Below are positions 49,280-52,370 of a stretch of 64,000 nucleotides of DNA, piece after piece. The stretch comes from an uncultured Actinomycetota bacterium (GTDB lineage: Bacteria > Actinomycetota > Actinomycetes > Actinomycetales > Microbacteriaceae). The notes below the pieces were generated by a model that saw only the letters and a list, made by a program, of their open reading frames with translations, did not search any database and had not been told where the DNA came from. Every line of letters begins with the position of its first letter. Within the stretch, counting starts at the first letter, position 1. Location of the stretch: positions 305,616 to 369,615 of the forward strand of contig CAWIVX010000006.1 of assembly GCA_963839715.1 (NCBI GenBank), in the 5' to 3' direction. Position numbers and translations under genes: made by a program.

Positions 49280-49871
49280 GTGGTGATCGATGGCGTGGAC
49301 GTGCCCCCGGGCGGCGCCGACGCCATCGACCATGCCGGCGACCTGCTCGTGCGCGTCGCGAACGGCGATCAGGATGCCTTCGCGCCAGCTCTACGACATG
49401 CTCTCGCCGCGCGCCTTCGGCCTCATCCTCCGCGTCCTCGTCGATCGATCGCAGAGCGAAGAGGTGCTGCAGGAGGTCTTCCTGGAGATCTGGCAATCCG
49501 CGTCGCGGTTCGCTCCGAACAAGGGTCAGGGAAGATCGTGGGTACTCACGATCGCACATCGCCGGGCAGTGGACCGCGTGCGGTCCGCTCAGGCGAGCAC
49601 CGATCGGGACGTCAAAGCGGGCTTCCGTGACATCGGCGTCGCGCACGACGGCGTCGCCGAGGAAGTGGAACTGCGGATCGAAGGGCAGCGCGTCTCCGAG
49701 GCGCTCTCGACCCTTCCCGACCCGCAGCGCGAGGCCATCACCCTCGCGTACTTCGGAGGTTACAGTCAGAGCGAGATCGCGGCGCTGGTGGGGGCGCCTC
49801 TGGGAACGATCAAGACGAGGATGCGGGACGGGCTGTCCCGGCTTCGAGTGGAGATGGGGGTGACATCATGA
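49280..49871 (+). CDS. sigK: ECF sigma factor SigK; apparent frameshift near 49380
   Basis: EEVLQEVFLEIW..A.RF, W..TIAHRRAVDRVRS, LAYFGG.S..E, GTIKTRMRDGL. Flanked by fasciclin and anti-sigma genes. Confidence 0.88.
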
Positions 49872-50645
49872 ACGAGCAGGAATTCGCCGAGCTGGCGGCC
49901 GGACACGCTCTGGGAGCCCTGTCGCCCGATGACAGCAGAGCCTTCGCGGACGCACGTCGACAGCATCCGGAATGGGAGCACCACGTGACAGCGGATGCCG
50001 CAACAGCGGCCGTGCTGGCCGAGGGCGTCGCCGAGGTCGCTCCGCCCGCGCGCATCCGAGATGCTCTGCTCGCCCAGATCTCCTCGTCGCCGCGTCGCTC
50101 TGGAACCGGCGGAGGATGCCGAAGCGCCCACCCTGCGCTCCGACCGCCGCTCCGAGACCCGTGCTTCCGAGGCGCCGAGCCGACGGCGCTGGGGCGCGCG
50201 CTCGTGGTTCGCGCTGGCCGCCTCGCTTGCTCTCCTGGTCGGCGTCGGGTGGGGTGCGGTGTTCGTCAGCGAGCAGCTCAACCCTCCGGCATCCGTCGTC
50301 GCGCTCGACCAGATCGAATCCGCGCCGGACGCGCAATCGGAGACCGCGACACTCGCCGACGGCGGCGAGGTCACCGCGCACTGGTCGGAGTCGCTCGGCA
50401 AGGCCGTGCTCGTCTCGGACGGGCTGCCGGAGATCGCCGATGAAGAGGCCTTCCAGCTGTGGTTCGTCCGCGACGGCACCGCCGTCTCGGCCGGAACCTT
50501 CACCGCCGATGAGGGCAGCACGACCGCCCTGCTCGACGGTGCTCTCGAGCCCGGCGACATCATCGCCGTGACGGTGGAGCCGGCCGGCGGGTCGCCGACC
50601 GGCGCTCCCACGTCGGAGCCGATCGTCGCGATCGAGACTGCCTGA
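49868..50645 (+). CDS. rskA: Anti-sigma K factor RskA; apparent frameshift near 50080
   Basis: LAAGHALGAL, PP..IRD.LL, TM helix, FQLW, AVTVEPAGGSP..PTSEP. Confidence 0.88.
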
Positions 50646-50705
50646 GCCGTCCCCAGAGCGCACGATGTCAGGCTCGCTGCGAGGATCCGCGGGTAGCCTG
50701 GTAGG

Positions 50706-51344
50706 GTGAGCGACGATTCGAGGGAGTTCCACAAGCCCGTGCGGCGCCCGGCCGAACTCTTCGATCGGCGCTTCGCGGCGGAAGACCCTGCCGAAGTCTC
50801 ACGGGTCGCGCACTCGACGGCTCAGGCGCTGCTGGCGCGGGCCCGCAGCGACCCGGACGGAGCGATCGTCGATCGGCTCGTGGCGTTCACCTACGAGCAC
50901 GGCATCGACGACATCGCCGAGCTGTGGTCGCGCTCGCCGGCGCGCTCGCTGCCCGGCGCGCTCTGGCGGCTGTACCTGATCCAGCTCATGATCCACGACG
51001 ATCCGCATACGGCGGCGCTGCTCTACGAGCGCGGCAGGGTGCAGATCACCTCCGCTGACCCGGTCGTCGCTGGAGCCCCCACCCCGGCCGGCCCGGAAGA
51101 GCTCGTCGAGCTCATCGACACGATCCTGCGCGGGCTGTTCCAGGGTGACTTCGCCGTCGCGCTCGATCGGGCGGCCGCGTTCTGCCGGGTGCAGGCATCC
51201 GGAGCCAGTCACCTCGCCGACGACTACGAGGCGACCGAGCCCGAGCGGGCCTCGGTCCTGACGACCCGTGCACTGCGGCTGGCCGATTACGCGACCGACC
51301 TCGCCGGCTGCGCTGCGCTGTGGCGTCGCGATTCGCTGACCTGA
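50706..51344 (+). CDS. Conserved all-alpha hypothetical protein
   Basis: Clean 212-aa ORF with ELW...PARSLPGALWRLY and GDFAVALDRAAAF. -10 TAGCCT 6 nt upstream. No catalytic motif recognised. Confidence 0.8.
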   Translation: MSDDSREFHKPVRRPAELFDRRFAAEDPAEVSRVAHSTAQALLARARSDPDGAIVDRLVAFTYEHGIDDIAELWSRSPARSLPGALWRLYLIQLMIHDDPHTAALLYERGRVQITSADPVVAGAPTPAGPEELVELIDTILRGLFQGDFAVALDRAAAFCRVQASGASHLADDYEATEPERASVLTTRALRLADYATDLAGCAALWRRDSLT

Positions 51345-51346
51345 GT

Positions 51347-51424
51347 GCCGGGCCGCAGAACGCCTCTCGGCGCGGAGCCGCTCGCAGCGGCAGAAGATGG
51401 AGCCCGGGGTTACTGCGGCCCGGC
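51347..51424 (-). ncRNA. Candidate 78-nt structured small RNA (family not recognised)
   Basis: 12-bp closing stem, two internal hairpins (one with GAGA tetraloop), -10 TACACT 6 nt upstream on the minus strand. Confidence 0.6.
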
Positions 51425-51485
51425 TGTTCCAGTGTAACCGAGGCTCCGGCGTGGGCATTCCCGTCGCGTAGGTAGGCTCGCATCC

Positions 51486-52370
51486 ATGGCCTGGCGCTTC
51501 GCTCTCATGATCGACCCCGCGACATCCGACGATCCCGGTCCTGACTTCTCCGCGACCTTCACGGCTGTCGACCCGACGGCGCCTGCCCTCAGCGTCGGCG
51601 AGCTCAGCACGCAGCGCGGCGACGGCATCTTCGAGTCCATCGGCGTGGTCGACGGCCACGCCCAGGAAGTGCGGCCCCACCTCGACCGCCTCGCACACTC
51701 CGCGGAGATCTGCGACCTGCCCGTGCCGAACCGGCGCCAGTGGCAGCAGGCGATCGGTCTGGCGGCGGAGCACTGCGAACCGGGCGAGAGCGTGATCAAG
51801 CTCATCCTGAGCCGCGGCGTGGAGCATGGTCCTGCGCCCACGGCCTGGGTGACTGCGGCGCCGGCCGCCGACTTCTCTCAGGTGCGCCGCGACGGCGTCC
51901 GGATCGTCACGCTCGATCGCGGCTATGACAGCGGAGTGCCGGTGCGCGCGCCGTGGCTGCTGCTCGGGGCGAAGACCCTCTCGTACGCCGTGAACATGGC
52001 GGCGATCCGCGAGGCCAAGCGACGGGGGGCCGACGACGCGATCTTCGTGTCGTCGGACGGCATCGTGCTCGAGGCGCCGACCGCCTCGGTCATCCTTCGC
52101 ATCGGCGACGAGTTCGTCACGCCCGCGCCCAACGGCGGCATCCTGCAGGGGACCACGCAGCTGAGCGCTTTCGCCTGGCTGGAGGAGCAGGGGCTGCGGA
52201 CCGCCTATCGCGATCTTCCGGCGTCAGAGCTCTTCACGGCGGATGCCGGGTGGCTCGTGTCGTCGGTGCGGCTGGCGGCCCCGATCACCGAGATCGACGG
52301 CGTCCCGATTCCGCGCGACCCGGAGTTCACCGCGCGCCTGAACGCCTACCTGCTCAGCCCGCGGGACTGA
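51486..52370 (+). CDS. Class IV PLP enzyme (aminodeoxychorismate lyase-like)
   Basis: RGDGIFES, HLDRL..SA, AKTLSYA.NMAA.R, EAPTA, ILQGTT. Confidence 0.9.
   Translation: MAWRFALMIDPATSDDPGPDFSATFTAVDPTAPALSVGELSTQRGDGIFESIGVVDGHAQEVRPHLDRLAHSAEICDLPVPNRRQWQQAIGLAAEHCEPGESVIKLILSRGVEHGPAPTAWVTAAPAADFSQVRRDGVRIVTLDRGYDSGVPVRAPWLLLGAKTLSYAVNMAAIREAKRRGADDAIFVSSDGIVLEAPTASVILRIGDEFVTPAPNGGILQGTTQLSAFAWLEEQGLRTAYRDLPASELFTADAGWLVSSVRLAAPITEIDGVPIPRDPEFTARLNAYLLSPRD

Follow-up and report, generated by a model that had tools for sequence, protein, structure and literature searches.

We identified a gene for a small structured RNA on the minus strand of a 64,000-nucleotide stretch of DNA from an uncultured bacterium of the Microbacteriaceae (Actinomycetota; contig CAWIVX010000006.1, positions 305,616 to 369,615), which is referred to here as the window. 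The element, at positions 51424–51347, is probably the single-copy gene of an RNA of approximately 78–80 nucleotides (nt) that belongs to a family found across the class Actinomycetes and acts independently of the 212-amino-acid protein encoded beside it, here called p212. Comparison with relatives showed it to be a three-way junction RNA gene, apparently with a promoter of its own on the same strand. The invariant interior, the covariation, this promoter and the wide distribution of the motif argue for a gene and not a terminator. Window coordinates are used throughout, and because the RNA lies on the minus strand its 5' end has the higher number.

Conserved sequence and secondary structure

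The motif consists of a P1 stem enclosing a junction from which two hairpins, P2 and P3, extend (Table 1). P1 is a perfect closing stem of 12 base pairs (bp), the P3 loop is of the GNRA type on the minus strand only, and 2 nt separate the last base of P1 from the TGA of the p212 gene (51342–51344). The original prediction, made from the letters of the window, had described this stem, the two hairpins, the strand-specific GNRA loop, an open segment bearing CCCGGG, the spacing of a TACACT hexamer and the 2-nt gap, and all of these hold. The folding energy is weakly unusual (z approximately −2.1) and equal on both strands, so the case for an element that did not arise by chance rests on comparison with relatives.

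A BLAST comparison against 40 relatives found the RNA to be 80–99% identical within the genus (Microbacterium) and 74–86% identical in the order's other families, in which the identity of the flanking protein is 34–48%. Alignments were made of 39 sequences of the order (A1) and of 100 named sequences of the class, 88 of them distinct (A4). In these, paired cells make up 97.8–98.0%, compared with 32–53% when the 3' partner is slid. A covariance-model check across relatives had been proposed along with the original prediction, and compensatory changes were indeed found class-wide at all 10 core pairs of P1. One pair of P2 switches from C-G to U-A in 21 of the 88 distinct class sequences; within the order the stem is invariant. 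Similarly, one pair of P3 changes from C-G to U-G (15 of 88 sequences), and the rest of that stem is invariant. The P2 loop belongs to the UNCGA-type pentaloops, and the P3 loop is mostly GAGA, GCGA or GUGA with a minority of GACA, GACU and GUCA. The unpaired segment CCCCGGGCUCCA is invariant or almost so in the 39 sequences of A1, and its class consensus is CCCC(C)GGNNYCA. The family consensus, which the window copy matches, is thus a covarying closing stem, a GYCGC-NNNGA-GCGRC hairpin, a GCCG-NNN-GGCG hairpin and an unpaired CCCC(C)GG..YCA strand.

The alignments contain many G-U and U-G cells that would read A-C on the opposite strand, and the functional strand is therefore the minus strand of the window. 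The GNRA loop, the promoter and the T-rich tail described below all lie on this one strand.

A screen for pseudoknots over all column pairs of A4 recovered P1 and P2 and, beyond these, GC-rich pairs due to chance; no column partners the junction strand, which is too invariant to show one. A 2-bp extension closing the junction (AA/UU, AG/CU and similar) is suggestive only, being just 70–78% canonical and A-G/G-A in the Streptomyces-like members. Two further features were considered and dropped. Mimicry of a tRNA 3' end (..GGGCUCCA) fails because the U and the CCA vary among members (UUCA, CUCA, CCCA), and although the junction CCGGGC could pair with the 3' arm of P1 in the window copy, this alternative is lost where P1 covaries. 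The CCCGGG palindrome of the junction strand, through which the original prediction had suggested that the RNA might dimerise, is absent from some lineages. One member is 98 nt long (L113:3030–3127), with approximately 16 nt comprising the 5' half and loop of P2 tandemly duplicated. At loci L083, L084, L087, L092, L098, L104, L119, L136 and L147 an extra short GC-rich hairpin (e.g. GGCCCUCCGGGGCC) lies between the −10 box and P1, so the RNA of such lineages would carry a 5' extension.

The motif does not correspond to a described RNA family in the databases searched. The Rfam 15 covariance models, run on the window, gave no match on the element at gathering score, nor to E = 10, in keeping with the earlier statement that it could be assigned to no known family. 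An Rfam scan of five distant members of the family returned no family match to E 0.1, the sole row being a spurious Thr_leader match on a downstream terminator. ARAGORN identified no tRNA at the element, and RF00005 gave no match there either, although it found three tRNAs elsewhere in the window; in agreement with the original prediction, the RNA is not a tRNA.

Distribution

The window copy scores 101.6 bits (E 2e-16, 51346–51425) against R1, a covariance model of the motif. In the order, this model detected the RNA in 147 of 151 genomes, covering 24 families and 62 of 64 genera and almost always in one copy; it is also single-copy in its own genome. In the class, which was scanned with Infernal's stricter filters, 88 of 151 sampled genomes carry the RNA, again with a copy number of nearly always one. 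R1 matched none of 140 genomes sampled from the phylum's other classes. Unpublished deposits account for five of the matching class genomes (G179, G202, G204, G208 and G215; the first, locus L102, is also in alignment A2). Without these five the RNA count becomes 83 of 146 and the protein count 34 of 146, and the conclusions are unaffected. The hosts identified by an exact-pattern scan of named genomes include Bifidobacterium, Streptomyces, Kitasatospora, Nocardia, Nocardioides, Kribbella and Pseudonocardia, as well as Cellulomonas, Arthrobacter, Rothia, Actinomyces, Mobiluncus, Brevibacterium, Modestobacter and others.

The exception to the single copy number is one genus (g22), in which the RNA occurs in 3–8 copies, one canonical copy beside the p212 gene and 2–7 dispersed cassettes of approximately 250 nt. 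The dispersed sibling copies retain the conserved core, including the C-rich segment. The cassettes (G107 loci L249–L254, also G159, G125, G067 and G142) each contain a SigH-type promoter and an 82-nt RNA. In G107 six near-identical copies carry ACCAC and a terminator hairpin 3' of the RNA, and two copies are 275 nt apart. A seventh, more divergent copy in the genus has a similar AGGAAT..GGTTG promoter, and the canonical copy has a SigA-like TACAAT promoter instead.

Local rearrangements of the cassette were found within Microbacterium. In G018 (L020:2145–2338) it is flipped but flanked by the same two genes, with 98.7% identity, so a unit of approximately 120 bp comprising the promoter and the RNA has been inverted in place. 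A second exact copy of the last 24 nt of the RNA lies approximately 50 nt further on in G018 and may be a footprint of the inversion. Extra exact copies of 20–21 nt, approximately 70 nt apart, are found just ahead of the full element in two other genomes, three in G022 (L012 2199–2426) and two in G015 (L031 2210–2365). The copied stretch corresponds to the plus strand of the window from approximately 51344, that is, the stop-codon end and the complement of the 3' arm of P1, and these copies look like short tandem partial duplications.

Promoter and 3' end

A putative promoter lies directly upstream of the RNA on the same strand. In the alignment of the genus, read in the sense of the RNA, the boxes GGGAAT and GTTACACT are conserved over a variable spacer, and P1 starts 6–7 nt later; in the window, 11 nt separate the GTT from P1. 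The consensus for SigR of Streptomyces coelicolor, as quoted in PMC3489674, is GGGAAT(G/C)-16 nt-(C/G)GTTG. The GGGAATG-N16-GGTT of the window fits this consensus, and also those of SigH from M. tuberculosis and C. glutamicum quoted in the same paper. We infer that the promoter in the Microbacterium window is of the SigH/SigR type, and the RNA probably starts at 51424 or no more than 5 nt before it. An independent minus-strand small RNA (sRNA) with its own promoter had been predicted, and the boxes conserved over a variable spacer together with the strand-fixing G-U pairs bear this out, as far as comparison of sequences can. Of the promoter itself only the TACACT −10 hexamer had been noticed. 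It is present, but the description was incomplete, as a full SigH/SigR-type promoter stands there.

The genome that contains the window has a SigH_actino gene (TIGR02947, 305.8 bits, above the cut-off; G000 C4:252610–253296), and GGGAATA-N17-GGTT 45 nt upstream of it is likely an autoregulated sigH promoter. There are 18 GGGAAT-N17-19-GTT sites in this genome in total. Others of the motif sites stand directly before genes for a flavin oxidoreductase, an NADPH:quinone reductase-like protein, a major facilitator superfamily (MFS) transporter and an F420-reductase-like protein, which are candidates for a small SigH regulon.

Across the family, 97 of 206 members have GGAAY-N16-19-GTT at a constant distance, Streptomyces-like and Mycobacteriales-like loci among them, and a SigH-type promoter precedes all six near-identical dispersed cassettes of genus g22. 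The Micrococcaceae and several other groups have SigA-like promoters of the TTGACA/TAnnnT type, and lineages that lack the GGAAT box keep a TAnnnT box at the −10 distance seen in the window.

At the 3' end, T makes up at least 5 of the 12 nt after P1 on the RNA strand in 16 of the 25 Microbacterium copies, so P1 probably doubles as a terminator stem. The Streptomyces-like loci have a separate terminator hairpin 3' of the core. In one of these (L106:2975–3036) a strong terminator hairpin with a U tract lies approximately 15 nt past the RNA core, and this is the source of the weak Thr_leader match mentioned above. In public sequencing data, 24 runs contained about a tenth of the query words, a portion about the size of the RNA; the four runs that were looked at consisted of contigs of related organisms.

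On the other side of the promoter, the −35 box of the RNA is only approximately 23 bp from the ATG of a divergent pabC-like gene (51462–51486), and TAGGCT stands 8 nt before this ATG. This placement suggests a leaderless pabC-like mRNA whose promoter would be back to back with, and overlap, that of the RNA.

The neighbouring protein and alternative explanations

Table 1. Features of the RNA element and of its genomic surroundings, in window coordinates.
Feature	Position	Strand	Basis or remark
Small RNA core, 78 nt, three-way junction of P1, P2 and P3	51347–51424	−	Sequence, fold, model R1, alignments A1 and A4
P1 5' arm, GCCGGGCCGCAG	51413–51424	−	Partner is 51347–51358
P1 3' arm, CUGCGGCCCGGC	51347–51358	−	Probable terminator stem in relatives
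Unpaired segment CCCCGGGCUCCA at the P1/P2 junction; candidate recognition or seed element	51398–51409	−	(Near-)invariance in the order
P2 hairpin, GCCGC-UGCGA-GCGGC, 5 bp, pentaloop with final GA	51377–51391	−	Stem invariant in the order
P3 hairpin, CGCC-GAGA-GGCG, 4 bp, GNRA-type loop	51361–51372	−	Stem near-invariant
Putative RNA promoter, GGGAAT (51462–51457), 18-nt spacer, GTT (51438–51436); alternatively GGGAATG-N16-GGTT	51436–51462	−	Conservation in the genus, published consensus
TACACT, SigA-like −10 hexamer, overlapping GTT by 1 base, 6 nt before P1	51431–51436	−	Sequence
212-amino-acid helical protein p212, actinomycete-specific, convergent with the RNA	50706–51344	+	Open reading frame (ORF); neighbour, partnership not supported
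Class IV aminotransferase/aminodeoxychorismate lyase-like gene (pabC-like), divergent from the RNA	51486–52370	+	Pfam PF01063, NCBIfam PRK07849
RskA-type anti-sigma gene	49995–50645		Upstream of the 212-amino-acid ORF
193-amino-acid ORF, probably the extracytoplasmic function (ECF) sigma factor of the RskA-type gene	49290–49871		Position before the anti-sigma gene

The gene that converges with the RNA encodes p212, for which we found no Pfam or NCBIfam family. The p212 family has 522 cluster representatives, and Actinomycetota is the phylum most often represented among its structural relatives in the Atlas. The AlphaFold2 model (AF2) is all helical, with a predicted local distance difference test score (pLDDT) of 92. 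Foldseek gave no match to E 0.001 in the PDB, with E above 0.3; the best Z from VIA-align, 7.8 over half of the chain, is helical-bundle background; the Atlas returned the protein's own family only and a PDB sequence profile nothing. The protein had been described as lacking a recognisable motif, which agrees with these searches, as they found neither a family nor a structural relative above background. The structure searches showed no recognisable RNA-binding fold, and p212 is acidic (isoelectric point (pI) 5.0; family median 5.1). It is called 'DNA-directed RNA polymerase subunit beta' in NCBI and UniRef, and sometimes 'NarL/FixJ response regulator' in JGI, with no domain or fold evidence behind either name. 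The p212 gene starts 60 nt after the stop codon of the RskA-type gene, and TAGCCT stands 6 nt before its GTG (50694–50706), a placement that suggests a leaderless p212 mRNA. A sigK-rskA linkage as part of the unit was rejected, as it is limited to the Microbacteriaceae.

The original prediction had proposed that the RNA and p212 form a module, in which the RNA would be a partner, cofactor or regulator of the protein. We consider this improbable, although the adjacency of the two genes is old and tight. Of 120 named loci, 58 have the p212 gene no more than 8 kb from the RNA. The two are co-directional in 49 of the 58, with the RNA lying past the p212 stop codon, mostly within approximately 40–200 nt, and convergent in 7, Microbacterium among them. 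The tail-to-tail arrangement thus holds for the window but not as a rule. The adjacency outlasts the local inversion of the RNA cassette in Microbacterium, and the RNA is present in 35 of the 37 class genomes, out of the same 151, in which p212 was found. However, 53 of the 88 class genomes bearing the RNA contain no detectable p212, including Streptomyces-like and Mycobacteriales-like genomes, whose RNA loci have other neighbouring genes. In genus g22 the RNA has multiplied while p212 remains single, the duplicated unit being the RNA cassette alone. Furthermore, the protein is acidic with no known RNA-binding fold, and the SigH-type promoter is missing from the p212 gene in 123 of 125 cases. 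Of the checks put forward with the prediction, both co-occurrence and the Foldseek search of the p212 model therefore went against a module. We treat the adjacency as real and ancient, with p212 as a syntenic neighbour of an RNA that acts independently.

It is very improbable that the element is a mere intrinsic or bidirectional terminator of the p212 gene. It does begin 2 nt past the stop codon with a GC-rich 12-bp stem, and it is 3' of the p212 gene in approximately half of the named loci. However, the interior is invariant across the order, whereas terminators drift, and the motif is found apart from p212 in many lineages and as free cassettes. In this genus the conserved promoter and the T-rich tail are on the strand opposite the p212 gene, and a terminator consensus scan of the window identified none, the plus strand included. 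The view that the structure is too elaborate for a plain terminator is thus upheld by the invariant interior, the covariation of P1 and the conserved promoter.

There is less still to recommend a riboswitch-like leader of the pabC-like folate gene read from the plus strand. The element is 62 nt upstream of the pabC-like start codon, and the RNA is co-directional with pabC in a few Microbacteriaceae, but the G-U pairs, the GNRA loop and the promoter are all on the minus strand and the adjacency to pabC is found only in the Microbacteriaceae. A short coding gene or a mobile repeat, such as a repetitive extragenic palindrome (REP) or a miniature inverted-repeat transposable element (MITE), is scarcely conceivable: open frames do cross the element in this GC-rich DNA and inverted repeats flank it, but members are 75–86 nt long in every residue class modulo 3, with no 3-periodicity and no frame open in all of them, which rules out a coding gene, and the element is single-copy in its own genome and nearly all others.

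Possible function

Our best guess is that the RNA is a trans-acting stress riboregulator. In Microbacterium the SigH/SigR-type promoter would cause the RNA to be made under thiol-oxidative or heat stress, with transcription starting at P1 or a few bases before it. P1 would also serve as the terminator stem, a poor one in the window, where the U tail is missing. The RNA would then act in trans without need of p212. As the leading but tentative possibility, and by analogy with the C-rich loops of 6C RNA, the rigid junction may present its C-rich strand to G-rich, Shine-Dalgarno-like sites of mRNAs. Pairing in trans is favoured because approximately 12 invariant, unpaired, C-rich bases are held on a rigid junction and because the sibling copies keep this segment.

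Only slightly less likely is that the invariant hairpins let the RNA bind, and thereby titrate, a conserved protein or ligand. This reading is based on the near-invariance of both hairpins, loop bases included (the final GA of P2 and the GNRA-type loop of P3). A broader proposal, which we regard as less likely than not, is that the RNA represents a new class of structured RNA in the stress response of actinomycetes and no simple antisense regulator, in which the hairpins and the C-rich strand together would titrate a cellular factor or small molecule upon induction by SigH/SigR in Microbacterium, Streptomyces and the Mycobacteriales. In the window, convergence with the p212 gene would make the RNA fully complementary to any 3' untranslated region (UTR) of p212, and read-through of either gene would give a perfect duplex; such pairing with the p212 mRNA is possibly a genus-specific side effect.

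Several observations weigh against the RNA as a stress-induced, trans-acting regulator gene. Near-invariant hairpins are no less expected of an RNA that binds a protein or ligand than of one that acts by base pairing. When at most one mismatch is allowed, the genome contains 35 complements of CCCCGGGCUCCA, compared with approximately 100 expected, so there is no enrichment, and the only other exact complement in the genome has no obvious start-codon context. P2 and P3 show near-zero covariation, with one varying pair each, and their pairing is backed mostly by invariance. The 18 promoter-like sites in the genome compare with approximately 20 expected by composition; with no excess of the motif, the SigH assignment rests on context and not on enrichment. 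Stress control is not a feature of the whole family, approximately half of whose members have SigA-like promoters. The window copy has only 2 T in the 12 nt after P1 and no U tail, because the convergent stop codon of p212 abuts P1. Metatranscriptome contigs with the RNA also span the promoter, and neither show nor exclude transcription. Finally, the identification of the Streptomyces member with the published RNA scr2952, considered below, rests on synteny and length.

Few small RNAs are conserved class-wide, and in Actinomycetes the literature found names only 6C (PMC4046766). The family described here is about as widespread as 6C, its core is almost invariant and it has no Rfam family. Its hosts span antibiotic-producing Streptomyces, gut-dwelling commensals of the genus Bifidobacterium, and Nocardia and Actinomyces, two genera with pathogens among their members. 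If the stress interpretation is true, the SigH/SigR promoter in distant lineages would tie the RNA to the thiol-oxidative and heat-stress response. The model R1 and the alignments A1 and A4 could seed an Rfam family and enable routine annotation.

Comparison with known RNAs

A probable relative of the motif has been published. The supplement of Moody et al. 2013 (PMC3765725) lists scr2952, an 84-nt RNA between sco2951 and sco2952 of S. coelicolor (3208719–3208802), together with the orthologues sar5126 (S. avermitilis, 91 nt) and svr2719 (S. venezuelae, 148 nt). According to this supplement, scr2952 was first seen by Vockenhuber et al. 2011. Its expression has been confirmed and it is conserved in more than half of tested streptomycetes (PMC8388888). 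The same paper places scr2952 in Rfam; contrary to this, Rfam 15 contains no model that matches the Streptomyces-like members or the window. SCO2952 is a HelD, and the 83-nt family member at the Streptomyces-like locus L106 has a malic-enzyme gene on one side, followed further out by an HU gene, and a UvrD/HelD-type helicase gene on the other. The two RNAs thus share an intergenic region (SCO2951-type malic enzyme and SCO2952-type HelD) and a size (83 versus 84 nt). The 148 nt of svr2719 also fit a core with a downstream terminator as in L106. The Streptomyces member is most likely scr2952, judged by synteny and length. However, scr2952 was published as a Streptomyces sRNA, and the literature found does not give its structure, class-wide distribution or promoter type. 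The supplements of RIViT-seq studies do not mention the locus. The novelty claimed for the window RNA stands in that Rfam has no family for it and is weakened by this probable published relative.

Like 6C RNA (RF01066), the RNA described here is small (6C is approximately 80–100 nt), highly conserved and found throughout the actinomycetes, with unpaired runs of C. 6C consists of two hairpins with C-rich loops and has a SigA/SigB promoter (PMC5014011). In the window RNA the C run is instead in the junction strand of a three-way junction, and the loops are UGCGA and GAGA. RF01066 gave no match to the element, and loops of six or more C are absent.

The GGGAATG-N16-GGTT promoter has the form of SigH/SigR regulon promoters, although the regulon members cited in PMC3489674 are protein genes. 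In the literature searched, no conserved SigH/SigR-dependent small RNA of this kind, and no conserved RNA arm of the regulon, has been described.

Regulatory sRNAs that occur as siblings or in multiple copies are known, such as those of the Qrr and CsrB/C type. The window RNA has no sequence or structural similarity to these, and its family is single-copy outside genus g22. However, within that genus the arrangement is the same, with multiple dispersed cassettes of promoter, RNA and terminator in which the core of the RNA is kept.

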